A stretch of DNA of 64,000 nucleotides, from assembly GCA_012295275.1 (NCBI GenBank), contig CM022669.1:6572001-6636000 (forward strand). The letters run 5' to 3'. The position numbers and the translations under genes were made by a program. The notes beneath the pieces are model-generated. The model saw nothing but the letters and a program-made list of their open reading frames with translations, made no database searches and was not told where the DNA came from. Source of the DNA: Chrysomallon squamiferum (lineage: Eukaryota; Animalia; Mollusca). Shown in pieces: positions 22,101 through 62,064 of this stretch (positions are counted from its first letter, which is position 1; each line of letters opens with the position of its first letter).

Positions 22101-24404
22101 TTTTCTTTAAATGTTATTAACATGTCAATTTTTTATTATTTTTTTTTTAGATAAAAAGTTTATTATTTTACCTAGAGATGGATTTTAAATTTTTTTTCTA
22201 CTACTACAACAAAAAAATACTGTTGGCTAAAAAAAAAAATGTGTAAATATTCACAATGTAAGTGTTCTTAAAATATTGACTGGTTTATAAAAATTGGGTT
22301 TTCACTTTTGTAAACTTGTCATAACAGAATCCACGTCCACTGTTCTAAAGCACTATTTATTCCATTTTACTGTTATTTGAATCATATCTAATACATGTAC
22401 ATACATATGTGAAATTAATAAAACAAAAATGAAAAACACAATTTTTTTGTTTTTTCTTTTAATGTTAACAACCAATGGAGCTCTGCAAACCAGATTGTCG
22501 TCTAGTGAGGCACATTCAGATTTAAATTTTTTTTTTTTTTTATTACATATACTCTCAGTATCCTTAAAATTCTGTTACTTATCAACAGATGAAAAAAGAT
22601 GAGTATCAAGATATCCGTAAATATATATTATCTGATATTTTTTACTGGTTTTTACAGGATGAAAACCTAAACTAAACTAAAAATAATAATAATAATAATA
22701 ATATTAAAAAATAAAAAATGACACTGATGATTGATTTGTTTATCAAAAGATATCCTTCGGTACACAAATCTTTTTAGTACACCAGTTATCTCTGTCAGCA
22801 TTTAGAATTATTTAAAAAATATGTAATAAAATATTTTAGATGTAAGAAAGGTATGCTAATAAAAACAATTTGTCAGTTTTAGGTAAAAGATTTTCTATTG
22901 TTTCTAAAGATTTAAATATCCTTTGATAAACTGACATCAATTCATTATGTAAACTGATTAATTTAAATAATACATGATTAAGTAATAAACAGCTAATTTC
23001 ACTGATGATAGTAAATAAAACAGTCACATTTATTTTGGATTTATAGATTTTTCATTCTGATTTGTATTTTCATCTCAGCTCTACAAATAGTCATCAATAA
23101 ACTAATGAAATGCAGAAAACAATTTATAATTTGTAAAATATGCAAAATATGGTCCAGTTCAACTACAATCAAGTATCTGTTTATCATCTTATGACTCCTT
23201 AATTATATAAACATTTCATTGTTATTCATAATTAGCATAGCACTTTCAATAATGATTTTTTTTTTTAAATAAAAATAAATCACAATAAAAACAATACTTG
23301 TTCATTAATATAAATCATGGGTTATTACCTATTTTTTTTAACAAATGATGTGTATTTTTTTTACAATGAAAAAACCTTATTTCATCTTAGACCTAAATTC
23401 CCTCCCTTTAAATAAAAAAATATAAAATATGTTACACATCCATTTTTGGGGCTGACTTTGATGATTACTAGTGACATCCATCACAAACAAAGTGTAGAAT
23501 AATGGCCAAGAATACATGATAAATAAATGGTTGCCCACATTTTCACCAAATTAACAACATAATTATGTTTACATCATGTACTGTATGAAACACATTTCCT
23601 ATGTAAGTACAGTAATATTATGAGCATCTCCAAAAACTACACAATACACATGAAGCAGATATTTATGAAATGATAAAGCATGGCCAAGTACAAAATTAGA
23701 ACACAATTTTGCATAACTTTTGTTAACATTATTAAAAAGAAAGATATTTTCTTTTAATAGTAACACTGATGATAGTTCAACATCTAAAAAATTATTTTCA
23801 GTTTAACTTTGAGACCTGACATACCAGATGCCAGATTATCAAACTGAAAAATAAATAGTTCTTTTTCTCTGTACACATATTTCATTAAACAAAGTGTCAG
23901 GTTTTCCACACTGTAAGTTATTTTGAAATTTCTCAAAATGGACATCTTCTGCAGAAGGAACTTCTATGTACAAACTTGGTGCACAGTCTGGATCTTATCT
24001 GAACACTGTGGAGTTAAATTCAAAACATTATTCGATATGCAGTTCCAGTAACACGTCAAGACTTTCCAGAAACTTCCAATATAGGTTTGCAAACGGTGAT
24101 GTATTTCTTTAAAAAATATAAAATAATAAAATGTAATTAAATGCAAATATATATATATATAATTCAATAAAAAAAAGAAGAAAAAGGCATATGATACATC
24201 TTGATTATTACAAATAATTAGTTATCAATAAAAATTGTTAATTAAAACGTAACAGGATACTGAAATACATTCAAAAATTCACGCGAATGTATGCTTTCTG
24301 TACAGTCAGTCCACAATTAGTGAAAATTCTTCTCTTCAGGAAGTTATCTTGCATATCAGTCTGACTGTTCTTTTAACAAACCTGTGTATTAATGATATCT
24401 TGTG

Positions 24405-27400
24405 TTATGTGGGCAGCGTGTTGAGAGCATCCTGTAGCTTGAGCCTTGCCTCGTTGACCTTTCCTTCCTGACGTCTGATATCTTCTTCATGTATTAGCAT
24501 CTGCTGAATGTGGGGCTGGTTGGCATCGATGTTGACGCCAGGGTTTTTCTGAATTGACGTCTTACTGCCGTTCTGACCAGTGATGGGGATGTTGCTGAGG
24601 TGGAGAGCGGCTGAAATACTCTGAAGTACATTTTCATTTGTCATCTCTGGGCCAACAGCTGAAATGTTTTAAGCATGAATGTCACAATTGTGAAAATAAA
24701 AATATTACTATGGATGATCACCTCATTGGTATACATAATTTGATTTCTAGAAATATTATAACAAGTAAATCCTTTTGGCTGTAATACATATTTGGTTATT
24801 TCTCTGTTCCACTGACTGCTCCATCAATGGCTTATCATAGTCTAGGAAAAATTCTGTTGATAGGAAAAATTAAAAAGTTTTGGTCAGACATAATGTGATA
24901 TAATGTTCTAGATTACTTAATTATTTATGATTCCTAATGCTGTTAAATTATTTGATTGTGGTCTATCAAAACCTAATAAAGTGACAACATACGCTGCATG
25001 TTTCTGGGGAGGTCCATGGCTTGGATAGGGTCATCTGCACTGTCTCTGGCTTGAAGTCCCTGTAGTCTTTTTTCCCAGAAAAGCTACAGAGAAAGAAATG
25101 TTTTTTTAATACTACTGATTTTTTGGTTTTCAATATTATACTAAAAATGGAATAAAAACCTAATATTTACTACACCTGTTCAAGAAGAGACTATAATGAG
25201 AATGTGTATATCTATTTATTAAATCTCCCAGGATTAAATTAAATGAGCAGTTTGAAAATATTATAAACATTTTTCAAATCTGTTTTCTCCATGATCTTTT
25301 TAAAACTAGTGAGATAAAACAGTGCATAATCTGTAAAATATTGATCACAGTTAAAGTGAATATATATTTTCAAAATATTCTAGTGGAATGACTAAACATA
25401 AGATGAACTGCAGAAAATGCAAAAGGAAAAGAAAAACATAAATAAACATAGACAGAGAGAGAGTGAGAAAAGGGTGGAGAAAAATCAAACTTATCTGTAT
25501 TTGAGTACAAATGTTTAAACAATAACAACAAAATAAAATTCTAGGGAGAGAAAAAAAAAATTTTTTTTCTCACCTGTTTTGGTGGATCCTGTGGACCATG
25601 TTTGAGATCAGATTTGGTCTGACTTTCAGGTCTGTTTCTTATTACTGTCACTGGCTGTTTGAATATTGATGCTGTTTGTCGAATTGGTAGAACTAAACTG
25701 GCATCATGCCGGATTCCTATCAAATTACCAGAAACAAAATATGTAGTATCCATGATTTATCTTACATTAGCAACAAAATTATAAACATTCCTAAGTTCAA
25801 TGTAAGTTATTTCATAATTTATCTGCAAAACTGTATAGTATAGATTTAAAAAAAAAATTCTTGACTATTGAAAATTATATAAATATTTTTAGAATTTAAA
25901 TGATTATAATTACACATCTTTACATTTTTTGACAGTTAATACTGAGTTGGTTAAATAAATTTAAACATACATGTTTCTATTATGCTTTATCAAGAAAATA
26001 ATTTGAATACATCAAAGTAAGAATACTATAAGTACTACCAGAATAATATCATTAACTATTATTATAAAGCAATATGCTAAAGAAAGTTTTCAACTTATGA
26101 TTGAGTTACATTACTTGGAATTTTCTTAAGTTTCTTTTTTATTTATGAAATATTATCTACTGTTTTTCTAGAACTGTGCTGCCAGAGAGAATATATAGTA
26201 GGGAAATAAATTCTAATGTTTATTTATATATTTTTTTCCAGATTTTGAATTGTTTTGTTTTTTATTTATTGTGGCAGTACAGACAGATTCAAGTCATAAG
26301 TAGAGAACTAGCTGAATTACTGTTAGACAAGCTAAGACAGTTATTATCTTTTGTCCTGTGAAGCATTTTTACAGAATGAAAACTAATATTAGTGATACTT
26401 ACCTAAAAATACTAATTTTAGGATTAGTAAAATTTAACATTCTGGTCCATTTTTCAGCAAAAAAAACAACAACCAATACTTACCTCCAAGATTTTCAGTT
26501 TAAACTTTTAACAAAATTATCACCTAATTTCTTTTTCATCAACTGCATGCATCATTACATGGCTAAACCTGTATCTCTAGCCTTTCAGCAAAGTTCGTAT
26601 AACTCAGTAGTAATAAAAAATTATAAGTCCAAATATAAACCAACCTATTTTCAATTTAAAAATATCAAATTAATGTTTTATGTATTATTACTAGTATTTG
26701 TATTAAATATATATCATAAGCACTGTTGTGTTTGTAAATATATATTCAGGATGTAAGACAAGCAGCTTATTTCTTGTGGTAATAAAATCTAATCATGCAG
26801 TAAAATAAAGTTAGCATTCTGAGCACAAATACTAGAGTTGTGAAAGCAAAGGCAAATATCATCAGGCAATGGAAGAATTAATATAGAAGCTCTGTTATTG
26901 CTAAATTCAAACAATGTTTTGAATTTTGTCTGAAAACAATTATAAAGCATGCATTCACTATTGAAAAATAACTATTACTTAATTTTATTATTTTTAATAT
27001 ATTGTTAGTATTTTTTTGTTATGTTTGCATATCCAAATATTCAGTGAAGCAAGAATACAGCATGCATGTGTTCAAATGAACTTCATTTATAAATTTATTA
27101 GACAGGTTATTAGATTACTGAAAAAGCTGGGCAATTAATTGTATTCAGAGAATACAACACATACTTTAAATTTCACAAAGTGATTTGAAGGATTTTGATA
27201 TTTTTGCAATAGTTTAAGAATAATTTATAACATGTATTATTTTTGGGGCTGTTTCTCTAACCAAATTTGATAGTAATTAGTACACAGAAAAATAAAAAAT
27301 TACTATTATAAACTACTCTAATTTGTTTTTGTGTCAGTATCGTGTTACATGCCATTCATATCAAACAAAATGGACCATGCAAAAATTACCGGATACAGGT

Positions 27401-28331
27401 TGATCACAAAAACAAACCTCTTGCAAAGTCAAAAGTTGATCCCTTCATACGCTTACTTTTACGAACTGCACTATAGATTAAACGACCTGTACGGAAGTCA
27501 AAAGCACTGAGATCAAGAGCTTCTCCAATGTAGCGGGCCAACTGTGGCTTGCTTCGGATCTTCTTGCCATCTGGGCTGAAATGAAAATAAAACAGATAAA
27601 CAAAGCTCATTAAAACATTAAACATATAAGTGTGACTCTGGGCATAAATGTACATGTAAGCTCTTCATACTGACAAAACAGATTACTCAAACAACAGCTA
27701 TTACTTGTTGTTTGCTGATATGAACAGGATTAAAACTGAATCAGCAAATGTTTGAGTTAATATTTAGCTTCCATTCAATCAATTCATTTTCATATGAAAA
27801 CTTGTTACTGAAAAAAAAATTAAGTATGTGAATAAACTGCTGAAACAGTTTCTAAACCTATTAATTGTTTAACATTAATACAATGATAATAATTTGATTT
27901 TGTTCACCTTACTACCCAATACTGGTCTGATTTTTAATTTGTGATTACGTCTGTTCGGAAAGAAGGTGCGACAGAACTCATTTCACTGTGTCGTATTTTA
28001 CTTTGATTGTAAAAGTTTATGAAAAGATCATATTATTACCATGTATTTTAAATTAATTTATGAAAGCCTGACGATGACATAACAAAGTCAGATGTAATGA
28101 CATTATGTTTCAACAATAAATAAAATACAGAATACTGAGAATTCAGTTTTAACTTTGTGTTTAAAATTCTGTTTATGTGTATTCGTTGATAAACTAATAT
28201 GTAATATACCTAAAATAATAAACATCAGTTTTTCCTGCAGATAATCCAGATTTCCTTACTACCTCTTCCCTCTTCCAACCAGATGGCAAGCCGCTTTCAG
28301 ATAACTTTGATGTTGATCTTTGCGGATCCAT
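24405..28331 (-). CDS. MBD2: Methyl-CpG-binding domain protein 2/3 (NuRD subunit). 5 exons: 28331-28210, 27575-27418, 25716-25574, 25083-24993, 24658-24405.
   Basis: LPSGWKREEVVRKSGLSAGKTDVYYFS/PDGKKIRSKPQLARY...LDLSAFDFRTG (MBD domain), LPIRQTASIFKQPVT, PKQ/LFWEKRLQGL, and C-terminal coiled coil EEDIRRQEGKVNEARLKLQDAL. This is the invertebrate single MBD2/3 orthologue. Confidence 0.95.
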
Positions 28332-28344
28332 TGTCCACTTTAGC

Positions 28345-28385
28345 ACACAACCGGAAGTGTTTTTCTTTTCTCCCGGAAGTTATAA
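28345..28385 (-). promoter_or_regulatory. Tandem ETS/GABP-like CCGGAAGT motifs just upstream of the MBD2/3 ATG
   Basis: accggaagtg at ~28350 and cccggaagt at ~28372. Confidence 0.5.
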
Positions 28386-29123
28386 TGCCAAGTGAAAATA
28401 ATGCCTTTTGTTTATTTCACATTTAATTTATACCCATTAACAATAAAATAAATGTGATATTTTTTGTAATTTCAAATTTTTATAATCACAATTTAATATA
28501 TATATTGTGTGATATATTCTTAAATTTTATAATAAATTGTGCTTGGTGTAGGTTCATACACTGAAATAGAAAATGGTTGACTGTCAGCATTTTAAGTGGC
28601 GGTAATGTTTAAAAGATTGTCAAGACACCTATATTTAAAAATAAAATCTGTTTTTCAAAAAAGATATAGAAATAATATAAAAAAAAAATCAATGATTTAA
28701 ATATATTAGTTGTTATACTGGGCAAAATATAATTGTTACTATAGTACCTACAACTACTAATACGTTATTAAAATATTAGCAATAGCTTTTAAATTTATGC
28801 CTGCTACGTTATTGTCACCTGTGTTAAATATTATATAACTACTGTCAGTAGTAGTAGAAATAGTAGTAATGTAGATGCATCGATGGTAGTAAACTAGTAT
28901 AAACAGAAGTAATAATGGTTATGATATCCTGATAATCTAAGGCCAGAATAATCATTCATTCGTTGATATATTAATTTATTGATTATTCTGAATTTATTTG
29001 TCTCTTAAGAGTTTTCCATGACTTTCAAAGGGAAACTTTTTTTTGTTATTTTTCTCACATGACCATTAGTAATTATTAGTATTCTGTACATTAATTAGAC
29101 AGTGTATATATTACTATACTCAC

Positions 29124-29124
<1 letters not shown>

Positions 29125-29187
<63 letters not shown>
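29125..29187. repeat. (AAT)n microsatellite
   Basis: Seen directly. Similar (AAT/ATT)n tracts occur at ~30930, 37590, 46790, 47590, 48720, 49620, 53910, 59760, 61670, 62960 and 63825. Confidence 0.95.
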
Positions 29188-29189
<2 letters not shown>

Positions 29190-29347
29190 CTTCAAACAAA
29201 TATATATATATTTCAGATAACCTACACCTCCCTGAGATTAACCATTGACTGTAGTTGTATTAATGGTAATAGTTCTCAAGAACATTTTACAATATTTTTT
29301 TGTTTTAAAACTATATTTGTATATATTTTGTAATACAGGTAAAAGAA

Positions 29348-29502
29348 ATGTTTCGAGGATTAACTGCTTGGTTCTCAGAAAGTGTATCAGCCAAACGAAG
29401 ACATCTTTGGAGTAAGGAACATAAAAACCCCCACTAAACCAATTATTATTATATAAACTGGGACACTTTTGTCAAAAATTCACAAAAACCCAAGTATTTA
29501 TT

Positions 29503-29535
<33 letters not shown>

Positions 29536-30930
29536 GTTATTATTATTATCTTTTGTTATTATTATTATTATTTATTCATTTATATATTTTATTATTATTA
29601 TTATTCTTATTATTTTTTAACAGCTGGGGTATTGTTAGGTTATATTTGTCATTTTTCCACAAAATTTATGCACCAACTTTTAGTCTCATTTCAAATAAGA
29701 AAATTATTTAAATGCAAGTTATTTCTTATACATGTTTTGAGTTATTCATGCATCGTTTAATTACAGAACAACATGGTGGAAAAGAAGTTCATTTTGATGA
29801 TGCGCAGTTTGTATTTAGTGAAGACTGTCAAAGTGAGGACACAAAGAGGTATGAATTTATCTTTAACAATTCATTTTAAATTTTATACTTAGCTAGATAT
29901 CAGTCACATTTCATGATGATTTCACAGAGGGAATATTCTGTTTCCTGTCCAAGGATTAGGTTGTCATGGAAACAGTGCGAGGTTTATTTCTAATACTATT
30001 TGTATTATTCTCAACAGCTGTAAGTAATCTTTATCAGGAAATCAGATCCTCAGACTGCTTGTTTTGAGATATTAGGTTGTATAAAAAAAATGCTGTATGA
30101 TATCATTTTTATTTTTATTTATTTATTTACATTTAAACTTTTTTAATAATAAACTGGTGACTATATAAAAATAATTATAATGGTTATGGTATAATGATCG
30201 GTAAAATACATTCAATTTAGTTTTTGATGTAAATGAGAAATTCAGTCCACTTGGTTTTCACCTGTGTGATGTTTTAATATATATTTGTATAAGTGATTGT
30301 GTGTGAGAGTGTGTATGTGTGTATGTGTGTGTATGTGTGTGTGTTTAGTTGTTTCTGTGTGTATGTGCAGATGTGTCTTTGTGTGAATCAGACTGGTTTA
30401 TTAATTTTCTTTTTTTTATTCACTGAAAAACAGTTTGCATTTCATTAATATTTAATATCGTTATTTCAGTCAGATTAGAAGAAAATTGTAACTCTTATTA
30501 TTTTTAAAAATAATCTTTTGAGATTACAGAATGTTCATAATTTTTTTTATGTGGAGGCTCTTTGAATGATTTCATTTTTAATATTTTCAGAATCTATCAG
30601 AGTGAAGCATACATGAATGAACATCTTGCAATTTTTCATGCCAGCTATATCAACGAGTGTGTACAAAAAGGAGATTCAAGAATAGTTGTCCTTGGAAAAT
30701 ATTTCATGCCACCTTTGGAGGTTCAGAAAAGTAAAATCACAAAATGCAGAATGTTAATCTGGAATTTGCTTTTATAGAAATATGTACACCTTCACATCTA
30801 TATATGAATGTATATACTTTTTGAAAACAAACAAGCTCTGAAGTATATTTTTTAATTATTATTTAAGAAATAAGATTATTTGTCATTAATTTCTCTGTTT
30901 TATGTATTTATTTATTTCATTATTATTATG

Positions 30931-30981
<51 letters not shown>

Positions 30982-32621
30982 GTTATTATTACTATTGTTG
31001 TTGTCATTATTATTATTATTATTTAGCAGCCAACATGAACTGGGAGTGGATCAAGATATCTGATAGTGAAGGCACCAGTGATGAGGTGGGTAATTAACAA
31101 AGTATTTCATTTAATGCCTCATTTCATAATTACCTTCATTTACAAGTAAATCTAGACATTCTCTTTGCATCAGTAAATAAAACAGTTTTATGTCATTTAT
31201 TATCAGAACTTTGTCATGTGCCTTCATTGTATTTGGCCCTAGAATTATGTTAGGAATAATCTCACTAGACTGTCAGATAGATAAATCTTGACTAATATGG
31301 AAAAAAAGGCTGAGATATTAATATCAGAAACTTCAAGTGTCGAGCCCATTGGATTTAATTTTTATTTATCAAATTGTGAATATAGCATCTTTTAAAAAAC
31401 TGTCTCAATTTCAGTAGGCTCTTACTGTTACTATTATTTAAAATATAAAACTTTGCATTTGTAACAGACTTTGCATAGGAATCTGTAAATGAGTGTATAC
31501 ATGTGTGCATATGTGTAGAACTAAATGCTTAGTATAACAAATATATATTTGTGAAGAGTTTTCTTTTTTCTTTTTTTACAAAGCATTTCTTTACTGGATT
31601 TTTATTTATTTATTTATTTATTTTCAAAGAATGAAGATGAACAATCAGTTTCAACAGCAAGGTCAAAAGTCAACAACACAGTAAACATAGCTGTTCAGAG
31701 AAATGCAAATATTACTAAAAACAAATCTCCAACTCACACTGTAACCATGGTAACACAAAGCAACAATATCAGTACAAGTTGGAGACCAGCCAATCATGGC
31801 AGAGTCACTAGAAAGAGAGGTGTTGTCAGTGAGAATACCATGGTAACTGACAATGTCACAGTGAAGATACCTGTCAATCGTTGTGATGCCAGTGAAACTG
31901 GTGGCATGACAGCAAAAAAGCCTACCAATCACTGCAATACCACAGCAACTGATGATGTCACAGTGAAGAGACCTATCAATCGTTGTGTTGCCATGGTAAC
32001 TGCTGACACAGCAGTGAAAAGAATGGATGAAAATGCTCTGCATAATGATGACATGACAAAGAAAAATAACGATGGGGAAGAAACCATAGTGATAAGTGAT
32101 GAGGAAAATGCTAATGAAGGTAAGACTACTTTTCTAACAAGAGATGTGAATTTGGTTCTGATTAATTTTAAAATTGGGAAAATGTTAAAAGTTTATGTTT
32201 GTTAATGATAAAGCATGACAATAATAAAACTAGAATGTGAGAATACAGTAATCTTCATTTTGTTTCTGCGTCTGAAACCATTAACTAGCTTCAGTAATAA
32301 AATTTATTCTGTCAAGATTTAAAAAAAAGTTAATTTGAGATAAAGAGGATAATTAACTTGATCAGTGCAAAGAGTGTAACTGATCACAAAAAAATTTACA
32401 TACTTCCATTCATACATCGATTAAGGAATGGTCCCCACCACTTGAAAAATAAGTCCCAACAGTTATTTAGATGAGTTTCTTAAAACATGTTTTAATATAA
32501 CTTAATATAATATTTTTGTACAGACACTGTCCATATTGACACATTGCCAAAGATTGCTGGTGTTATAGAAGATTTGATCCCTGGTCAACAAGGAGTTGCT
32601 CTTTACCTAAAAACATCTTGA
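29348..32621 (+). CDS. TERB2: Telomere repeats-binding bouquet formation protein 2. 6 exons: 29348-29411, 29767-29848, 30591-30730, 31027-31085, 31630-32119, 32524-32621.
   Basis: MFRGLTAWFSESVSAKRRHLWKQHGGKEVHFDDAQFVFSEDCQSEDTKRIYQSEAYMNEHLAIFHASYINECVQKGDSRIVVLGKYFMPP matches the recalled vertebrate TERB2 N-terminus (MFQGQRGWFCGSVS...FW...GG...ADFLFSCDASHPDTLRIYQS...VFHAYY...VALGHFILPP). The last exon, DTVHIDTLPKIAGVIEDLIPGQQG, matches the MAJIN-binding C-terminus (YISIDAMKKFLGELHDFIPGTSG). Phases are consistent. Confidence 0.88.
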
Positions 32622-34623: not shown

Positions 34624-35289
34624 ACAGCCAGAACAGATTCGTATTGCTGTGGATAAAAAAGGAAATAAATTAATTTAAATGTTTTCAACGTTCCAGTTCA
34701 GAGAATCTGGGTAAAATATGCATATCTAACATGGCAAGATGGTGCTACTGCCTGGTGTGTTCGTTAAGGAAAGCAGGATGACAATTTTTTCAAAATCGTG
34801 ATCAACGAAGCCTTAACGTGAGGCTAACATTCCAGCAATAAGAAAAGCTCCCGATAATAATATCTTCTAATAGTACAGCAACTCAAAACAGCGTACTGCA
34901 GAATACAGAGTGATGGACTACACAGACAAATAGTGTTTTATATTTAAAAATCCGATATAAAGATTAAAAACCCGATACTCACGAGAATCATGCAAACTAG
35001 CTATTCCTTTTAGGGACAACGCTGATGTCCAGAGGTACTGATACAGACTATAACACGAATACAATAGACTGACCAAAGTTAATCCCATACCACCCAAATC
35101 ACACCTAGCCAAAACCCAGTGTTGTTGTAGTAGATTGATTTGTTTAGGTTTTTGGCTAGTTGGGAGGACACCGGTTTCAGTAGTGCCAGTAATAGGAATA
35201 GTAGGGAAAGTGGTACTACTACTAGTAGAGGTATGTATGAAACCACATCTTCACTAGGTGGTCTCAAAATTACCAGATACAAGATACAA

Positions 35290-35462
35290 ACATGGCTTGC
35301 ATATTAGCAGTGTATTGTTCTTAGACTCAAAGATCAGATGATCGTCTGTCATGGTGATCCGGTTTCCATTTTCTGTTGTTAACGTTCGGTAAGTGGCATT
35401 CACGTGTGGCTTTCGTTTTATAGATGTTTTTACTTCTGAAGGTATACTCTTACCATTTTCAA
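35290..35462 (-). pseudogene. Orphan Hint-domain exon (copy of Hog exon 39402-39231) with a frameshift near its 3' end
   Basis: VENGKSIPSEVKTSIKRKPHVNATYRTLTTENGNRITMTDDHLIF, followed by a 1-nt loss relative to the intact copy. The flanking intron sequence is also homologous. Confidence 0.8.
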
Positions 35463-35589
35463 CTGGAAGAAGAAGAAGAAAAAACAACCTACAGAAGAAA
35501 AAGCAACAAATAATGTGTTTGTATTTCTGTAACATTCAAAGATCCTTGAGGTATTCAGTCACGTTGAAAAGTTCATTTACAGACATAGT

Positions 35590-36095
35590 TATATTGAAAA
35601 CATTTTGGTTCTAATATTTTTTATGTTATTTTATCCAAGCTCTGTGAACAGCAATGTATGATGCTACTTCGGCAACTTCTGTGATTATTAACTGACGCTT
35701 ACTGATTTCAAGAAGTCAGTTTAGAAATTAGGTTGTAGATGTACTCTGATTTAATTCTTAAACATTAACTGAACAGAGGATAGATTCCATTCATTAAAAC
35801 GCATTTTCATAGACACCAAGGTTCCAGTGCTTAAAGAAAGACGAAATTATTTATCTGGTCATTTCTGACCTACGCGACCTATCATCTTCTAAGTTACTCT
35901 AAATAGTTGCTTATTTCAGTATTGCTTACGAAATATTAAAACACCAAACTGATACAAACAAAGAAGACCTTCATCAACTATGATTACCATTAGGAATCAG
36001 TATTATTCGGGGCAATAATTTAATTGTGACAGAATGTGTGAAAATCAAACATTAATGAAAATATATTAGCTGTTAAATCTAGTAATTTCACAAAG
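35590..36095 (+). repeat. ~500-bp direct segmental duplication of 41220-41700
   Basis: Shared blocks such as tatgatgctacttcggcaact, cagtttagaaattag.ttgtagatgtactctg and tctagtaatttcacaaag. Confidence 0.8.
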
Positions 36096-37162: not shown

Positions 37163-37322
37163 CTAGCGAGTATATTAGTAGATTCGTTGATCAAATGGTT
37201 CTCTGGCATGGTAATGTGATTGCCAAATGGCGTTGTTTACGTTGGATAAGTAGCTTTTTTGTGTGGCTTTCGTTTCATTAAAGGTTAAAGTTATGAAAAT
37301 ATTCGGTTACCATTTTCGACTC
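37163..37322 (-). pseudogene. Heavily decayed Hint exon copy
   Basis: VENGNRIFS*L*PLMKRKPHKKATYPT*TTPFGNHITMPENHLI, with three stop codons. Confidence 0.7.
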
Positions 37323-38130
37323 AAAAAAAGGAAGAAAACAAACTATTTTGTTTGAATTTTTTAAACATAGAAAAAAACATCAGATGTTAAAACATTATTA
37401 AAAGAGCAATTTACAAAGTGTTTATAAGAAAAGAAACAAAAAATAAAATAAAATAAAATAAAATAAAAATTCAGTGCATAAAAATGGAAAGAACAGGGCC
37501 TAGCATAAATGTATGGAGACGAACATTATATTTTTGTATTTATTTATCAAGTTTCTTCTTCTTCTTTTTTTCTCTTTCATTTCTGTTATTATAATTATAA
37601 TTATAATTATTATAATAATTATTATTATTATTATTATTATTATTATCGGTAGTAGCAGTGGTAAAAGTAGTAGTAGTTGTAGTAGCGTTTTTTAAACTCA
37701 TCATCAGAAAATTAAAATAATGATATTTTAACTCATTCTTACTGTAGGTCAATTCAAATTCATAAATATTTAGGACAATAACAACTATTTCATACTGTAT
37801 TAAATCATATTAGCAAAAAAAAAAATATGTGTGTGTTGTGTGTGTCTGTTGTGTGTGTGTGTGTGTGTCTGTTGTGTGTGCGTGTTTGTGTTTACGCCAA
37901 TTTGGAAAATTTCCTATCCAGTGTCCTGTTAGGTAATTTAATAAAAGCACTTGCAATATGGTTACCTGTCACTTAAATAGCGTAATCAAAAACAAACTCA
38001 GTTATAGATCAGCGCATATATTTGTCATACGTTTCAGCATGGAACACAAGAATAAATATAATTTAAAAAAAAAATAAAAAGTAAAGAAAAAAAGGATTAA
38101 TAATAAACTTAAAACGAAAGAACACGTTCA

Positions 38131-40251
38131 TTAGCATCCTGTCATTCTGTCGACATTTCCAGGAATCAGCAAGGTACCGAAATATCTCATGCCTTCTATT
38201 ATTGGACTAGATCCGTCTTCTTGCCATGGTTTCAGTAGCCACGGAAACCAGCGGAATGGAGCTAAGATCAAATGTTCAAAGTCGTGATCAACAAAATCAT
38301 AACATGAAGGTAAAAATTCCATCGACAACAAGTGTTCCTGTCTCTGTGACTGGTACGTACAAACCTGTAAGCAAATATACATATAACAACAACTTCAAAT
38401 AGCACAGAAACGCAAGACAACAAGGGCGAAAAGATAACAGCATATTGCAGCATACTCAGTGAGGTGCGTCCAAGATACAACATAGGACGCACGACACTTT
38501 GTATACTGCAATATACTGACGTAATGTACAATCTAGAGAAATGGAAATACAGATAGCAACCAGATAGAGACATCCTGCTCGTTGATAATAAGGCATATCA
38601 TACAGCTGGAATTACAATGGTCGGAGAAGTTTCAATAGTAATGTTAACGATAGTACTTGCAGTGGTAGTAATAGTAATAGCACTAGTAGTTTAAGCAGTA
38701 ATGACTGTATAGTAGCATAAGACGCATTTCTAGACGGACCTTCTTTCTGAGAGAAAGATATTTCAACGACTCGCTCTCCATAAAGATCGTTTGTAGACGA
38801 TTTTGTTGTAAAAATATAATCACCGCGTTCCACAACCATCGCAAATCTGAAAGGTGAATAAATCGTATGACTTTGGAGAAAATGATAAAATACCCCAAAA
38901 TACTCACAAAATATGATTTAAATATCGATAAATGTATTTATTTTTCATTTTGTGATTCTATAAACTTATCTATGATTACTTCCTACTTTTTTAATGTTTT
39001 GCAAACTATCTATAACAATTATCTTACAGAAACTAAGTTTTTTAAATATTGATGATGTTTTTCAAGCGTGTATGGTGCACAAATACTTACATTTTGATTT
39101 TAACCAAATCACAGACGCATGTAAACAAATTCATATACAGTTTCTATACATCCGTCTCCTTAACAATAATTAACATATTTAATTTCTTCCCACGAAACCT
39201 GCACATAGTTACCAGAGACCAGATACAAACCTGGCTTGCATATCAGTAGATCTGTTGTTCTTAGACACAAATATCAGATGTTCGCCTGTCATGGTGATGC
39301 TGTTTCCATTTTCTATTGTTAACGTTCGGTAAGTGGCATTCACGTGTGGTTTTCGTTTTATAAAAGTTTTTACTTCTGAAAATATTCTCTTACTATTTTC
39401 CACTGGAAAAAACAAGAAATGGAAACAAAACAAAACAAAACCAAAAAAATCAATAAAATAAAATAAGGAAAGAAATAAAGAAAAAGAAAGAAAAATAATT
39501 AAAAAAAACAAGACAGAAAAAAAAAACGCAGAAAAAAATCAAACAACTAATGTGTTTTTATTTCTGTAATATTCGAAAATCCTTGATGTATTCAATCACG
39601 TTGAAAAGTACTTATTTTGACGGCTAATATCGGTCATTTATAGAGATGTATGTATTGAAGAAACTGAAATTGGTCTTCTTTCTCTGGACTTTTGAAGAAA
39701 TATATGCGTTTTATTGAATTACCCAAAATAAATATGAATTATATAACTTTCACCGACGTACAAAACCATTCCAGTTATAGTTAAGTAAGAAATATACCTT
39801 AACTTTTTCATACTAATTATAACTTTTCACTAATTCTTGGAATACATAATTACTTTTTAGATCTGGTGACCACAAATATATACAGACGTCTATCTATGTG
39901 ATATATTTTTGCACTTTGTGCTATGTAAAAATCATTAAAATGTATTAACCTGTCAGAACCTTATGGCCTGGATTAAGATATTTCATTTTCACGAGGGATC
40001 CGTCTTGAAGTTCAACCTCACTGTCAGCATGGAAACACTTACAGTTATCACAGCATTTATTAGGTCCCCAGTTGTCAGAACATCCACATTTACATTCATC
40101 TTTGGGATTTGTTCTCGCACCAGAAATAGAATAACAACGACAGAAATTCTTTGAAAGAAAACATATTCCAATTAAGGATTGAAAATGTTTTCATTATGCA
40201 TGTATGATGTTTTGTGAAGACATTCTTTTTCACCTTGTAATGAGAAAACTT
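38131..40251 (-). CDS. Hedgehog-related Hog protein: small 8-Cys N-terminal peptide + Hint autoprocessing domain + sterol-recognition-like region. Exons 40251-40234 (microexon), 40148-39950, 39402-39231, 38846-38740, 38364-38131. One extra T at ~38312-38316 (assembly error or young pseudogene). 5' exon uncertain.
   Basis: NFCRCYSISGARTNPKDECKCGCSDNWGPNKCCDNCK|CFHADSEVELQDGSLVKMKYLNPGHKVLT/VENSKRIFSEVKTFIKRKP...ITMTGEHLIFV.../RFAMVVERGDYIF.../GLYVPVTETGTLVVDGI[fs]LPSCYDFVDHDFEHLILAPFRWF. Shows the Hint CF start, the TxxH motif, the GxYxPxTxxGT..V..xSCY block and the H..xAPxR SRR motif of Hedgehog C-termini. Exon phases 1, 2 and 1 join correctly. Confidence 0.85.
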
Positions 40252-40754
40252 CTATAATATTGTTTTCGTTTAACGAATTTAGTGTACTACAGTAATGAAA
40301 TTTGAGACATGGAAAGAGGTACAAAAAGAGAGACAGAGAAAATCAGAGAGTGGGAGAGAGGGAAAAGAGAAAGGAGGCCTGGAATAGTTGTGAATAGAAC
40401 AGAGAGACAGAGAGCAGAGGGTTGGGAAAGGAGTGAACAAAATATTATGTTGTTATTTTAGATTCAAGAGAGATACTGAATTTAGAAACTTTATGCAACA
40501 GGGAATGTTTAATTAAAAGGTGTTAAAAATGACCAATATTTTTTAATATATACATACTTCACCTAGCTGATAGGCGCCAATAGCTGGAAATATGATTTAA
40601 ATAATTAATTTAGGTTGCTTTAAATAGGAAAGCATGAATCACTTATATATGATAAATCTGTTTTTCTTGATTTTATGATGTAAAATAATGAAATACAGGC
40701 AGTCATAGACAGAATAAAGAAGACATACAGAGGAAAGTAATATCAGTAGCCCGG

Positions 40755-41984: not shown

Positions 41985-42027
41985 CTTGTAACACGAAAAA
42001 AATAAATAAATAAGAAAAATCATCCAT
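41985..42027 (-). CDS. Candidate first (signal-peptide) exon of the Hog gene
   Basis: ATG-started short hydrophobic stretch (MDDFSYLFIFFVLQ in phase 1, or MIFLIYLFFSCYK in phase 0) ending in AAG|GTAAAA. AT-rich DNA can mimic this. Confidence 0.3.
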
Positions 42028-43504
42028 AGTTAGCTCACTGTTCAACAATGTTCTTTAAATGATTGAGTAGATTTTTATAATATATTTAATATATTCACAT
42101 ATACATAATTTATATATTATATATAATTTACATAAAAATGAATGCAATTTCAGGGTTTTAAAATATTTTCGGTTTTTATTCCATATTCATAAACCTTAGA
42201 TCTATTAGTGTCAGATTTTATGGATATCGCTTGCAGTTCTGAATACTTTAATTTGATTAATGTTCACATTATGAAATATGAAAATAAAACATATACAGTC
42301 CATGCAGTTTTAAGTTTTGTTTTATTTTTATACTTTCTTTTATTTCATTTTATTTTATTTTTATTTTTTTAATTTTATTTTATTCCGTTTTTATTTAATT
42401 ATCTATTTGTTTATTTATTTATTAATTAATTAATTTTTTTTGTTTTTCTTTCTGTTGTTGTCTTTTTTGTTGTAGTATTTTTGTCACGGTTGTTGTTATA
42501 GTACCATTATTTCTGCTATCCATATTACTGACGCTACTGATACTGCGAAAACTAATATTATTGTTGTTGTTGATGTTATCGTTTGTTCTGCTTCCACTAA
42601 CGTTTTGTGTTGCAAATATCATTTCAGTATTTTTCCTTTTCAGTTTTATTTTCGACTTTGGAAAAGTCGTATTAAATTACTACCTATGAAGCTGAAATAT
42701 TCTGAAGAGAAACCCTGCCCCCCAGCCCAAAAAAAGTGAGATCTAGATATTACAAGCCTCTTTTGTTCGCTTAATCAAAATAATATCTGGCTACTTCTAT
42801 GTGCCAAGACTTGATGTAGTATTTGACTACTATTAAAGTATGCAAACATTTTTCAATTTAATATGAGATATTTTATTTCCAAACGTTTATTATTAATTAC
42901 TGTCGCGGGACCGACACCATTAAATATCTTTAATATTTTACCAAGGCTCAATTTCGATTGAGAAGTGCTCTTGTGGCCATCTCACAAGGAATAATGTGAA
43001 TTATTTCATACGGAGAACCAATAGAAAAATAAGAATGTGCACTGAGAAAAAATTAACCACGTTAAATATGTCTATATGAATGGTTACCGAGAGAGGTTAT
43101 TTTTACCTTACGCTCAGTCAAAATAAGAACAGACAATGGCTTACCATACTTTTTAAATTAGTTGAAAAATATCTTTGTTTTCTTCATTTTGTTTTATTTA
43201 ATTTTATGTTTTAATTTTAAGTAATTTATCACATGACATTGCATATATACAGTTTTTATATTCTTCCGTAATAACCCTGAAGTAAAAAAATAAAGAAAAT
43301 AGCAAAAGAAACATTGACAACTTCTTTGATGTCCATATTTAAACGAGTAACTAAGGTAATTTTATGACTTTTGATATTGGACTATATCCTTCATCTTGTC
43401 ACGATTTCAGACGTCACAGGAGTAGTTGTAGTAGGAGGAGGCGTAGATGTAGGAGCCCTACTGGTAATAAATGTAGTAGTAGTTGCATAAACTGAAGGTA
43501 GTAC

Positions 43505-43567
43505 GTGCGATCTTTTTTCTCAGGGAAAGATATTATCGCGATTAAGGACTGTCCTGTCGAGAAAATC
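43505..43567 (-). pseudogene. Possible decayed remnant of Hog exon 38846-38740
   Basis: cag|ATTT...CGCGATAATATCTTTCCCTGAGAAAAAAG resembles cag|ATTT...CGCGGTGATTATATTTTT...ATATCTTTCTCTCAGAAAGAAG. Confidence 0.35.
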
Positions 43568-44023
43568 TGATAAAAAAGTCGAAATAATGTATTCTTCACA
43601 AGGTTGATATAATAAGCAAATACAAACTAATATTAACATATCTGTAAATGTATTCTTATATTGACGCCTTCTGCACTGTCTTAGAGATACAGAACAGTTA
43701 TCGTTAATTGCCAGTGACATTAACTAGAGTACTGAGTCTTGGACAGCTGGTATGGTGTGCTAATGAAACAATTTCAGGATGAGCTACTATGAATAATGGA
43801 ATAAATTCAAAATCGTAACTCATGCTTTAGATATTTAAATTTAGTACCTGTGTCCAAGAAGGAGGTCAACGTATTTCTACGACTCTTTTCCGAAATGAGA
43901 TGTCCTAAGGAACATTGAGAGCAGTGTTTTATGACAAAGACATTCTGCAAGACTATATTTTGTAATTTTTATTTTTTTCTGTTACTACTTCTACCACTAC
44001 TAATACTAATCCCTAAATTATAG

Positions 44024-44915
44024 AATTTTTTTCATTACAAAGGTAAAATGAATGTTTCTTAAAACGTCGTACATGCATGATGAAAACATTTGGAGGTTCT
44101 TACTTGGAATACGTTTCTTTCAAGATTTTGTGTGCTTGATGTGATTGGATTGGAAATAGAGTAAATCCTAGAGACGAATGTTTATGTGGTTGTTCTGATT
44201 AAATCTGTGGTAAAGATTGTAAGTGTTTTGATGCTGACAGTGAGCTCGAACTTGAATACGGATCCGTGATAAAAATGAAATATTTTAATTCAGGCCATAA
44301 GGTCCTGACAGGCTAATGCATTATAATTATTTTCACATCGCACAAATTGCAATACTATATCAGATAGATAGATGTCTGTATATATTTGTGGTCACCAGAT
44401 ATAAAAAGTTATTTTTTATTCCAAGAATTAGTGAACATTTATAATTAGTCTGTAATAGTTAAGGTACATTTCAAACTTAACTATATATCGTACGTCGCTG
44501 AAAATTACATAATTAATATTCTTGTTAGGTAATTCAATAAATCGCACGTTCTTCTTCAAAATTCCAATAGTGAAGACCAATTTCAGATTTTCCAATAAAA
44601 CCATGTCTATAAATGAACGATAGTAACACTCAAAATGCGCATTTTACAACGTGATTGAATAATTCGAGGATTTTTCAGTGTTACTGAAATACAAACACTT
44701 CAGTTGTTTGGTTTTTCTTTTCTACCGTTTTTATTTGTTAGAAAATGGTAAGAGGATATTTTCAGAAGTAAAAACTTTTATAAAATGAAAGCCACACGTG
44801 AATGTCTCTTATCGAACGTTAACAACAGAACATGGAAACAGCATCAGCATCACAGATGACCATCTGATATTTAGAAACGTGTATTAGAACAACAGATCGA
44901 CTAAAACAAGTCAGA
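44024..44915 (+). pseudogene. Inverted-duplicate Hog pseudogene (microexon 44024-44042, Cys-peptide/CF exon 44125-44311, TxxH exon ~44742-44915)
   Basis: LCA*CDWIGNRVNPRDECLCGCSD*ICGKDCK|CFDADSELELEYGSVIKMKYFNSGHKVLT and ENGKRIFSEVKTFIK*KPHVNVSYRTLTTEHGNSISITDDHLIF. Contains in-frame stops and a donor mutated to GC. The introns are reverse-complement homologous to ~38950-40250. Confidence 0.85.
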
Positions 44916-46785
44916 AATGTATCTTGTATCTGGTAATTATGTACATACTGCAAGGGAAAAAATGTAATTATTATTAAGAAAGATGGAAGTATAGAAAGTG
45001 TGTGTGTTTGTGTGTGTTTGTTGTTGTTCCATATGTACACATTAATATATAGGTGTTTTGGCGAAACATCTACTAATACTTGTTTATTTGCTTCTATAAC
45101 CTCGCTAAAATGAAAATTTAAGAATCTGCGGACCATACACCCTTGCAAAACTCACTGATATTTACAAAACATAGTTTCTGTAAGATAACTGTTACAAATC
45201 GCTTGCAAAATATCAAACAAAGGAGAACGTAATTTTATAGATCACAAAATATCTAAATACCAATATTGAATTTTTTTTTTTTTTTCAACAGTCATTTCCA
45301 GGATGGCAATATATGGATATAGAAACTTAAATCAGTAAAAATATAGTAATTACTATTTTCACTTTATTTTACTTTAGAGTAATTTCTAATTTGTCTAATA
45401 ATGTGTGTCACTGGCTGATAAATATGTAGATTAATTCTTGATTTTATTAGCTTGCAGTTTGTTGTTTTATTTACTGATCAGTCTAAATTTATTATTATTT
45501 AGTAATAGTAACTGTTATTTTTATGTTTGGGTTTAGCTCCTTATAAAATGATTTAAAAAAGAAAGATAATTACTACTGAATCCGTTACACTTATTTTGGG
45601 TAAACCTGGATATGACATCATTCAGTATTACTTCACATTAACACTTCTAATGCCTGGGAAAAAAGCCAGCAAATTGTTTGAGAGTAAAATTGTTAACCAA
45701 TGCTTTCGTTTTATATAATGCGTTTGATGAAGAATTCCACTCATTGTAATTCTAATTTAAAAACGACAACAATTTAAAAATAACTTTACAAGAAATCACA
45801 ATAAAAAATAAAATAAAATAAAATAAAACCCAACACAATTTAGTTGGAAACTGGGTATTTGAGAACTGCAGATAATGACTAGAATACTTTTAAAACCGGT
45901 ACAAATATGTGCTATAACTGACTTTGAAGTTATTTCTCTTAAAGAATTTTCATAAATTAACAGAATTCCAAGAAATCACTGCTATCAAATCTGTAAAATT
46001 TTGAGACATAATTGGCTTCAGGAGAAGCTGGGAAGAGAAGTTCTAAAGCTCAATAATGTGGATCGTGATACAATTGCTTCTCTGACCAAAGATTTCATTT
46101 GTTCTCCTGATTTATCCCGTTTGTTCGGACATAAGACAGGGAATATCAGTATTCCCACAAACTCAACTCAGACTCGCCGCTAATTCAGTTAAACTCGCAA
46201 GATTTCTGGATTTAATTATCGTTACTATTAACAAAATACTTTACAAATCGTTTCCAGCTCAGATTAGCATTTTGAATGAAAACTACTCGTGTTAAATGTG
46301 ATGAAATGTCAAATTGTAACGAAAATATAAAATACGGAGATAGGTAATTCGTTTAAATGCATGATCCTAGAACATTATATATATAATAATTTGAATAAAT
46401 ATTAAAATATAATTTAAGCGTTTTCATTTAATAGTGTTTGTTGCATACCTCTCTATGAAGTTTACATCCATCAATGTAACACTCTTTGAGTATCGCTGAC
46501 TGATCTGAATATTTTAGTTTTAATAAACTTTTCACACGGAAGAATGACAGATATGCGCTGTGTGCAGTTTTCAGTCTCGTTTATATATATATAATTATTA
46601 TTATTATCATTACCATCATCATCATCATCATCAAAATTTTGTTGGTAAGAAAACGTCTGAATCTTTGTGTATATCTGTCTATCTATCTACTGTTTTTTTT
46701 TAATTTAATTTAATTTTTTATATATATATATAATTATAATTATTATTATTTTTATCATCATCATCATCATCATAATAATAATAAC

Positions 46786-46818
<33 letters not shown>

Positions 46819-47867
46819 TAGTTACTATTCAAAGATATTATAGTTATTATGATTATCTTTCGGCAAATAAAATAATAATAAAAATACTAACAATAACAAA
46901 ATAACAAAAAATAACAAAGAAACAAAGAACAAATAAATTAATTTGATTAATTTTATGTTATTTTTAGAGAAAAAAAAAAAAAGACATTTTTTTTTTTTTT
47001 TTTTTATTAGATAAAGTAAAAAGAATTTCTCTGCAATCAGTACTTCACTTTGCCCTATGATACCTAGAATGTCTGTAAACAAAATTTTCTCCGTAGCAGA
47101 ATGGTATAGGCGTCCTGAGTCTCCGGAATGTTGTCTATGAACAGTGTGCAATAAGACGGACATCAGACACCTTGTCTGTATACCCAGATATTCATATATA
47201 TATATATACACACATTTAATGATTTATGTAACCTGTATGCAAGGATACCTACATACCTACCTGCCTACTTGCCTAGAAACAAACCAATAACAAACAACGT
47301 ACATACACATTTCCAGTTTCTATTTTTCTACTTTTAAATCGTCTCCTCCTTGATCCAGTCTTGAGGTTTATAAGTATTGACATGTTTGATTAATAAGGAG
47401 TATCTTCATACGTAATTAGATAACTCGAAATTAGATACAATAAAATAACATTCTTGAAGATCAGATTTGTTTCCATTATAACGAAGTTATATTTCCTTAT
47501 GTATTACATGCCACCGTTAATATACTGGGCACCCTAGAATAACAACAGCAACAGCAGCAGCAACAAGCAACAACAACAACAACAACAATAATAATAATAA
47601 TAATAATAATAGTAATAATAATAGTGATATTAATAGTAGTAGTACCATTAACTATTTGAGTAGAATTTCTTATAGTAATAATAGCAGTAAATGTGGTAGT
47701 AATAACTGAACATTTGACACAGGTAGAAAAACAAAATGACAAGGTCAGTGGATCAAGAAAAAAGAAGAATTATTAAAAGAGAAGAATGCTGTTGCTGCCA
47801 CTTGCTGGACTTTTGATAAAATGACGATTATAACGAAAACTAAATATTTATTTATTCGTTCGTTGAT

Positions 47868-54885
<7,018 letters not shown>

Positions 54886-57125: not shown

Positions 57126-57389
57126 CGGGTAATCATCGCTTCCCACGAAGCCCGCTATTTCTTTTGTTTTTCGTCAGTTTTGCATGCATCTATTTTTTTG
57201 TGGGAAACCTGGCACTGGCAAGTATGTAGTTTAGGATTTTGAACATTCTCTGTCTTATGTACGTCTGATTAGACTCTGCACATGGAAAATACTCGGGAAC
57301 GCTTTTATTATGTCCCATCTCTTTGCAATTAATGTTTTGTCGTGACTGTACGAATTAAAGATTTTCTTACATATAAAATCTGCTTGTAG

Positions 57390-57582
57390 GTTTGTACCTA
57401 CCAGTCACACAGTCAGGGACTCTTGTTGTAATTTAGCTTCATGCTATGGTTTTGTTGATGACGACTTTGAACATTTAATCTTTGCTCCATTCCGTGGCTA
57501 TGAAATCCATGGCATGAAGTTGGATCTCGTCCAGTAATAGAAGGCATGAGGTATTTAGGTATTTTACTGATAACTGGAAATC
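57390..57582 (+). pseudogene. Decayed terminal exon of a Hog gene (Hint C-terminus + SRR)
   Basis: tag|G LYLPVTQSGTLVV[del]LASCYGFVDDDFEHLIFAPFR[del]...PVIEGMRYLGILLITGN. Homologous to 38364-38131 but with deletions. Confidence 0.85.
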
Positions 57583-58465
57583 TTTTTTCTTTTATAAATT
57601 ATTATTATTTCGTTTTGTGTTTATTTTTTTATTTTTTATTTTTAAATATTTCTATTTGAGCACGATATTCAAGTATATGCCATATAAGTATTTGTAGCCT
57701 CATAAATTAAACTTTCAACTTCTTTAAAAATATAATTTTAAGTGACATGTAACCATATTGGATGTGCTTAATTAATTTACCTATAGGACAGTGAATGGGA
57801 AATATCCCAAACAACAGTAAACAAACAAATCTATTTTTTTTTATATATATATGAAAGTTAAAATACAGGTAGCATGAAAATATGACAATTGTGAATATTT
57901 TGTTTTAACGATCAGAAGATGCTAAGAATCCCAGGAAAACCCCCCAGCAAGAATTATATCATGTAAACAAACGTAAAGTATGACAAAGAAGGCTTTTTAT
58001 TAAACAAAGTAAAAATAACATACCGCTACACTCAGTACTTTATTTCTCAGTAACACACGTTATAGGACACTGATATAGGAAACACTGATGTCCAAGATAT
58101 AAACATTTCCTGACCAGGCTATTATTTTTAATGGCTAGATAATTTTATTTATTTTTATTAAATGATTTATATAACCTATGTGCAAGGATAGCTACATACC
58201 TACCTACCTACCTATTTGCCTAGAAAAAAAAAAAAATAACATACAAACAAATTTCCATTTTCTATTTTTCTATTTCTAAATCGTCCCCTCCTTTCCCAGC
58301 CTGAAGTTTATAAGTAGTGACATGTTTGATTAATATGTAGCATACATAATTACATTTCTCGAAATTTAGATACGACAAAATAATATTCCTAAACATCAAA
58401 TTTGCTTCCATATAACGAAATGGTATCTGTTCTTATGTATTATTATGCCACCTCTTATATAGCAC

Positions 58466-61744: not shown

Positions 61745-62064
61745 GTGATATTAATAGTAGTAGTAGGATGAACGATGTCAGTAGAATTTGTAATAGTAAT
61801 AATAGTAGTAAATGTGGTAGTAATAACTAAACATTTGACACAGGTAGAAAAACAAAAAGACAAGGTCAGTGGATCAAAAAAGAAAGAATTATTAAAAGAG
61901 AAGAATGTTGTTGCTGCCACTTGCTGGACATTTTTTATAAGTCCTAAATAAAATGACGATAATAACAAAAAGGAAATATTTATTTATTCGTTCGTTCGTT
62001 CGTATAGTATTTCAAAGTGACAACAGCGATCATCGGGATGATTCGTCTTTTATGACATATTGTT

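Follow-up and report, generated by a model that had tools for sequence, protein, structure and literature searches.

The stretch of DNA considered here (hereafter the window) comprises 64,000 nucleotides of contig CM022669.1, positions 6,572,001 to 6,636,000 of the forward strand, in the assembly GCA_012295275.1 of the mollusc Chrysomallon squamiferum, and its features are numbered from its first letter. On the minus strand it carries an exon, 40148-39950, whose translation consists of a 37-residue peptide with eight cysteines (the cargo, 37 codons, 40038-40148) followed directly by the start of a Hint domain of the Hedgehog type, or Hog domain (39950-40037). The cysteines occupy positions 3, 5, 19, 21, 23, 32, 33 and 36 of the peptide, which gives the framework CxC-x13-CxCxC-x8-CC-x2-C, and the Hint nucleophile, Cys1, is encoded by 40037-40035 at the Cys-Phe start known as motif A. 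A first-pass annotation, made from the letters alone, had proposed this joining of an 8-Cys peptide to a Hog domain together with the framework and the nucleophile codon, and all three are confirmed by the translation, by Pfam and by public DNA contigs that span the junction. The Hint profile PF01079, by which the proposal was to be checked, matches both the cargo exon (E 1.3e-4, profile positions 8-40) and the next exon (E 1.8e-10, profile positions 47-97, 41.2 bits, above the cut-off of 29.7), the score of 22.1 bits on the cargo exon lying below the cut-off because just 29 Hint residues are encoded there. The junction is crossed gap-free by contigs of runs X2 (record 15, 0 differences) and X7 (record 30, 3 differences), which are filed under two different study codes, either run being a possible source of the assembly. 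Among 17 stop-free 37-codon stretches with at least eight cysteines in the six frames of the window, the cargo is the sole one that does not look repeat-like, the other 16 having a simple-repeat or low-complexity look as judged by eye from their translations; 20 block-shuffled windows yielded one match to the same criterion in total. The statement of the annotation that a Hedge domain is missing holds as well, none being found near: the cargo exon abuts Cys1, the exons scanned with Pfam gave no Hedge match, and the upstream DNA to 53.5 kb contains Hog remnants and a gene with VWC/pacifastin-like repeats.

Gene Model

Around the cargo exon a gene of six exons can be assembled (42027-41985, 40583-40558, 40148-39950, 39402-39231, 38846-38740 and 38364-38131, minus strand), with GT-AG at all five introns and with agreeing phases, and it reaches upstream to about 42027, beyond the piece 38131-40251 that the first-pass annotation had described. 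Exon 1 (41985-42027), the weakest part of the model, is predicted from an ATG followed by a hydrophobic signal-peptide core and ends in a phase-1 GT donor; with a hydropathy peak of 2.6 it was the best of three phase-1 candidates within 7.4 kb, and it may have arisen by chance in T-rich low-complexity DNA. The predicted mini-exon 2 (40558-40583, 26 nt) is bounded by canonical AG/GT and links exons 1 and 3 by phase, contributing the end of the signal peptide and the first five mature residues of the cargo; in one contig of run X5 at least seven substitutions are listed within it, all of them in the mature part and none creating a stop. Exons 1 and 2 together would thus add an 18-residue signal-like start and five extra mature residues, so that the precursor likely begins with a signal peptide and the predicted mature cargo has 42 residues, a mass of 4.7 kDa and a net charge of about +1.

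Downstream of the cargo exon, exon 4 (39231-39402) encodes the Hint core with a TxxH motif (Thr 39289-39287, His 39280-39278) and, as placed by the profile at equal lengths and by the published alignment, a lysine (39358-39356) at the position of Asp46 of Hedgehog. Exon 5 (38740-38846) is assigned to the middle of Hint by canonical splice sites and phase and by its likeness, judged by eye, to the FA..V..GD stretch of published Hog alignments; alone it has no Pfam match. Exon 6 (38131-38364) encodes motif F, motif J (SCY, whose Ser codon is at 38307) and a tail resembling a sterol-recognition region (SRR). Scanned singly, neither the two later exon pieces nor that of the SRR had a Pfam match. 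The motifs TGEH and SCY and the stretch HDFEHLILAPFRWFPW are all located in later exons, as the annotation had described, but SCY and the SRR-like tail stand out of frame in the assembled sequence, a one-base frameshift occurring near 38312. Two structural peculiarities were noted in this part of the locus, namely an imperfect short palindrome within exon 6 (38227-38250) and a self-inverted stretch (38438-38518) in the intron before it.

Exons with VWC/pacifastin-like repeats at 48-52 kb raise the question of a larger N-terminal region, of which the cysteine block would be only the tail, these repeat exons being spliced into exon 2. They lie upstream on the same strand, give weak Pacifastin_I or VWC matches and have phase-1 donors that by eye are compatible with exon 2. 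Such an extension is nevertheless very improbable, for the last repeat exon ends at a stop codon behind which AATAAA follows at 47856, the roughly 8 kb in between contain inverted Hog remnants, and a signal-like exon is available nearer by. The VWC/pacifastin-like gene was therefore treated as separate on account of this stop and AATAAA.

Active Site of the Hint Domain

In the coordinates of the Pfam profile Cys1, the lysine, Thr and His fall on positions 13, 58, 81 and 84, with equal lengths on both sides, and their spacing is that of C258, D303, T326 and H329 of Drosophila Hedgehog; the TxxH motif (motif B) corresponds to Thr68 and His71. The lysine at the Asp46 position is found in all four exon-4 copies of the window, and by our by-eye reading of the Hog alignment in supplement S1 of PMC2362128 the same column is occupied by Asp or His in each of the 50 rows. 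According to passages of PMC9163320, Drosophila D303A retains thiol-induced cleavage and loses cholesterol transfer, the substitutions D303A/N/R/E accelerate cleavage by dithiothreitol (DTT), and His may substitute for Asp46 with activity retained. By-eye comparison of the C-terminal part indicates that a motif K-like stretch is kept and that HWY of motif L reads RYF. Two features of Hedgehog proper, the general base Asp46/His and the HWY of motif L, are accordingly both missing from the snail gene.

Release of the cargo without cholesterol becomes the more likely because Asp46 is replaced by Lys in 4/4 copies of the window, and formation of the thioester followed by cargo release without efficient cholesterol ligation is what we would expect, with slightly better than even confidence. 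The cholesterol-type C-terminal modification suggested by the first-pass annotation is not supported, the residue in place of the general base being Lys; the self-releasing precursor suggested there fares better, self-release being the best, if predicted, reading of the domain, but the present copy is frameshifted as assembled. The main chemical rival supposes full Hedgehog-like action, in which the Hog domain would ligate cholesterol, another sterol or a lipid and so produce a tiny membrane-tethered signal. Presence of Cys1, TxxH and SCY together, preservation of motif K-like and aromatic motif L-like stretches of Hedgehog type rather than nematode type, and the activity kept upon replacement of Asp46 by His (PMC9163320, in part) speak for it, while Lys46 in four copies out of four, abolition of cholesterol transfer by D303A (same passages) and RYF in place of HWY make this outcome unlikely, if still to be reckoned with.

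Comparison With Known Hog Proteins

The layout of the gene is not new, tiny-cargo and Cys-rich Hogs being already described as Shog, Xhog3, Enop and Lophohog, and its novelty had been overstated in the annotation: small-cargo and six-Cys Hogs are present in PMC2362128, parts of which report, as early as 2008, secreted Hogs with cargos of 15, 25 and 34 residues and a six-Cys Enop motif upstream of the domain. Thus, the enoplean nematode proteins XC Shog1, XC Shog2 and Ts Xhog3 combine a signal peptide, a tiny cargo of the above lengths and a Hog domain in the way predicted for the snail gene, Enop-hog (Ts Xhog1/2) has six conserved cysteines, and Ts Xhog3 moreover keeps both motif K and motif L and, like the snail gene, has a basic residue in place of Asp46. 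Unlike the snail cargo, those of Shog and Xhog3 are not Cys-rich, and nematode Hogs carry a central Cys pair (all from the same parts of PMC2362128), whereas the snail model has no cysteine between Cys1 and SCY; the marks of the nematode Hedgehog-related families (warthog, groundhog, quahog, Enop), that is the central Cys pair and nematode-type K/L motifs, are absent from it. Compared to the C-terminal part of Hedgehog (HhC; Drosophila PDB 1AT0; PF01079), Cys1 and TxxH are shared, as are SCY and a motif K-like SRR helix, both beyond the frameshift in this copy, and a putative cleavage site right behind an N-terminal part predicted to be secreted; the snail gene differs in having no Hedge domain, a predicted cargo of some 42 residues, a scissile bond that reads Lys|Cys rather than Gly|Cys, Lys at Asp46, RYF for HWY and many copies in place of one.

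Closer in taxonomic respect is Lophohog, a Hog family of lophotrochozoans that has an N-terminal domain peculiar to it, reported from Lottia, a chiton and Capitella, and 11 Hedgehog-related genes are reported for a limpet (PMC5103448, PMC9695228, both in part); with these the snail gene has in common a gastropod Hog expansion with non-Hedge N-termini. A Hint domain is also reported on a snail immune-type GTPase (PMC7053062, in part). The cargo could on these grounds be a diverged Lophohog N-terminal domain and the gene a new member of a described family, the more so as a gland-enriched gene of Gigantopelta aegis, the closest named relative, is labelled 'lophotrochozoan hedgehog-related' in the tables considered below. 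Against this, a phmmer search with the cargo and Hint start over 1.84 billion representatives returned only two matches, both unrelated (a repeat protein and a sushi-like repeat protein), and none to Lophohog or limpet Hedgehog-related proteins. Proteins of Lottia, Patella, Haliotis and Gigantopelta are contained in a sister collection, which lends this negative some weight, with the limit that the presence of Lophohog itself in the library is unconfirmed. We regard descent of the cargo from Lophohog as rather improbable.

Other searches for relatives of the 37-residue peptide, proposed by the annotation along with fold comparison, brought none to light. The cargo has 0 Pfam matches; word-based protein searches with exons 3 and 4 gave no match, a weak negative as they covered longer proteins only; in a metagenome scan 0 of 118 pattern matches were confirmed for exon 3 and 1 of 431 for exon 4, the latter (L001) being an unrelated prokaryote-like surface protein; and sequence searches of PDB gave chance matches only, single exons not retrieving even Hedgehog. 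From Atlas came leads of Hint type for exon 3 (best 0.86), and no lead for the cargo (at most 0.81) was credible. The fold search with the cargo gave 0 matches, a weak test given a single-sequence model with predicted local distance difference test (pLDDT) score of 69 (45-51 for the other four models), and the missing fold match is no evidence for a new fold. In listings of the open-licence literature no paper was found on a fusion of a Cys-rich peptide with Hog in a mollusc or on a role of Hog in symbiont organs.

Two further identities of the cargo deserve consideration. Its size and four possible disulfides, and an Atlas lead of 0.77 to scorpion short toxins that is within chance for Atlas, are all that would suggest a venom toxin, and with neither a sequence nor a fold match, a net charge of about +1 and a closest named relative, G. 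aegis, that is chemosymbiotic and lives on endosymbionts, this identity appears highly improbable, and the comparison with toxins or defensins made in the annotation finds no support. A metal-binding module, released for metal handling at vents in place of a disulfide-bonded effector, is improbable to a lesser extent: cysteines make up 8 of the 37 residues, and the motifs CxC, CxCxC and CC, interspersed with Lys, Gly, Asp and Ser, resemble those of metallothioneins, but Pfam gave no match to any metallothionein family, and a signal peptide directs its protein into an oxidising compartment, which favours disulfides.

Related Copies and State of the Gene

Five further Hog pieces are scattered over both strands of the 64-kb window, and all five are decayed. 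Copy B (44017-45250, plus strand, inverted with respect to the present copy, A) comprises a cargo exon, an intron and exon 4 and bears stops, deletions and splice-site damage, the cysteine frame of its cargo being mostly kept; since copy B retains most of this frame, the fusion is older than the duplication that gave A and B. Likeness of sequence also identified copy C (34789-36095, minus; intron-1-like DNA, exon 4 and an exon 6 remnant), copy D (37190-37337, minus; an exon 4 remnant) and a decayed exon 6 copy with frame breaks of its own (57317-57811, plus), and remnants of exons 5 and 6 lie at 43364-43534 (minus; E 0.009 and 9e-6). Identity between A and B amounts to 77% in the cargo part, 85-88% in the Hint parts and 82-84% in the introns. 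Positive selection on the cargo was considered from the value of 77% and not accepted, the counts being small and B decayed. In run X1 the summed depth reaches about 675-690 on exons 4 and 6, from 2-3 contigs, versus 29-72 for the longest listed contigs, contig depth not being equal to copy number; this suggests a large family with many similar Hint exons and with cargos that are more divergent or different.

With an intron difference of about 18% from B, copy A is free of stops, deletions and splice damage in exons 2-5. Neutral decay was simulated over one half of the intron divergence between A and B; of 20,000 copies, 0.9% came through with exons 2-5 and the adjoining splice sites undamaged, or 3.4% if only substitutions and splice damage were counted (without indels). 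Since intact exons 2-5 are improbable under neutral decay, in comparison to the damaged copy B, the gene was presumably under selection for most of its history, and it is selection to which we ascribe the open state of this copy over that time.

The frameshift near 38312 falls into a five-base homopolymer just ahead of SCY, and homopolymers are a frequent site of assembly error. At this break the deep contigs of runs X2 and X7 keep the frame, and SCY-like sequence is reached without interruption from loose ends in X1, X2 and X7; both the in-frame contigs and the loose ends look like other gene copies, and the contigs listed for run X1 include none in frame there. The copy is, at about even odds, either recently broken or mis-assembled. 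Two deletions were also seen in public DNA contigs: in run X5 one of 179 bases (38212-38392 region) takes out the greater part of exon 6, and in runs X1 and X2 one of 431 bases (39175-39607 region) takes out exon 4; they may represent further broken copies or alleles.

Proposed Mode of Action

Taken together, the locus is best explained as a Hog gene of a peltospirid-like snail that joins an 8-Cys peptide to a Hint domain and whose intact family members likely self-cleave, freeing a predicted secreted peptide of about 42 residues, probably without cholesterol; we judge this account as a whole to be somewhat more probable than otherwise. The signal peptide would bring a precursor of about 260 residues into the secretory pathway, where the cargo would fold with four disulfides. 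Cys1, aided by Thr68 and His71, would then form a thioester at the Lys|Cys bond, which with the general base missing would be resolved by water, thiol or amine and not by efficient cholesterol transfer. The freed peptide might act extracellularly or in a vacuole, most plausibly in the oesophageal gland that houses the symbionts.

Several considerations weigh against this account. The first two exons, and the splicing throughout, are predicted. The product of the sequence as assembled stops at 204 residues, before SCY, with loss of Cys143 and the sterol region, and the public contigs do not separate a real frameshift from an assembly error. Copy B, the sole other cargo exon seen in full, is a pseudogene; the depth of the cargo exon in run X1 is 125, at the level of the intron bins (88% likeness), without the rise seen for exons 4 and 6; most members of the family may bear other cargos, the existence of an intact gene with this cargo being a prediction; and no protein of G. 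aegis matched the cargo exon in the representative search. As for the chemistry, the assignment of the lysine follows profile coordinates and by-eye alignment rather than a structure, the departure from Asp46 is not unique, since other short or non-Hedge Hogs differ at this position too (Ts Xhog3 has Arg and Nv 120428 has Gln, according to supplement S9 of PMC2362128), and retention of the SRR-like tail would fit lipid transfer.

Part of these observations can be gathered into the view that the cargo-Hog gene is dead and the locus a cluster of pseudogenes, active members with other cargos being located elsewhere. The frameshift ahead of SCY, the decay of all five other pieces in the window, the cargo exon depth that is not raised at 88% likeness and the lack of a listed in-frame contig at the break in X1 are in accordance with it; exons 2-5 and splice sites, however, are intact, a state reached in just 0.9-3.4% of copies under simulated neutral decay since the split from copy B, and the break lies in a five-base homopolymer. 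Death of the gene is in our estimation unlikely, while being the most serious of the competitors to a self-cleaving, peptide-releasing gene.

Neighbouring Features

The VWC/pacifastin-like gene (47860-52060, minus) consists of at least seven short phase-1 exons with Cys repeats, partly tandem-duplicated, and possibly a 21-nt mini-exon near 52030; Pacifastin_I matches all four scanned exons (E 2e-6 to 1.5e-4, Pfam), and the gene may encode a multi-domain protease inhibitor. At 3260-6915 (minus) lie exons of a protein-tyrosine phosphatase whose HCSAGIGR motif is intact. A dispersed repeat with a near-identical translated stretch occurs at no fewer than three sites (48400, 59400 and 62590), and the segment 58775-59036 resembles 61983-62192.

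Possible Relation to the Symbiont-Housing Gland

A gene for MBD2/3 with MBD and MBD_C domains is located at 24400-32200 of the window, and one of its exons shares 96% identity with G. aegis, as against 78% with Haliotis and 66-68% with limpets (27 matches among 130 candidates), so that the host is probably a snail of peltospirid type. For G. aegis the supplements of PMC7895826 list 16 KOG3638 genes, 11 of which appear among the genes enriched in the oesophageal gland, compared to a background of 1782 gland-enriched genes in 21,438 (8%); the hypergeometric p of 4e-9 is overstated, paralogues not being independent. The five genes that are not gland-enriched include both rows labelled K06224 or Hedge signalling domain. 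An astacin-like gene, 'high choriolytic enzyme' (ctg1659-1.2), lies amid three Hedgehog-related genes of a single G. aegis contig and likewise belongs to the gland-enriched set (Supplementary Data 2 of PMC7895826). One 'indian hedgehog' row stands in the oesophageal gland (OG) table of the scaly-foot snail in the supplement of PMC7142155. In the main texts of three peltospirid genome papers (PMC7895826, PMC7142155 and PMC7736800) the word 'Hedgehog' is absent (0 occurrences), as it is from the searchable supplement files of PMC11871041. A further point to be set against a role of the present gene in the gland is that the G. aegis genes are table rows, tied to it by kind and by host only.

In functional respect the predicted cargo invites comparison with BCR peptides of aphids and NCR peptides of legumes, which are secreted, have 44-84 residues with 6 or 8 cysteines and come from symbiont-housing cells (PMC6594739, in part). 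The likeness is a functional analogy only: those peptides are released by signal peptidase alone, have no Hint domain and show no detected homology (same source), and gland expression is known for Hedgehog-related genes of the relative G. aegis, not for this gene. A bolder, doubtful proposal would be that in chemosymbiotic peltospirids the autoprocessing domain of Hedgehog has been recruited as the built-in maturase of an expanded gene family and frees diverse small Cys-rich peptides in the symbiont gland, a functional counterpart to NCR and BCR, with the change of Asp46 to Lys redirecting the thioester to hydrolysis, cyclisation or non-sterol ligation. Parts of PMC2362128 state as an open question whether non-Hedgehog Hogs attach an adduct to their cargo. 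A cargo of 4.7 kDa together with a natural Lys at the general-base position makes the snail gene a convenient test case for this question, the peptide and any adduct being weighable directly. The gland enrichment sits in the supplementary tables of one peltospirid paper, while main texts omit Hedgehog; if the family does act in the symbiont gland, it would represent a candidate class of host effectors for the symbiosis of vent snails.

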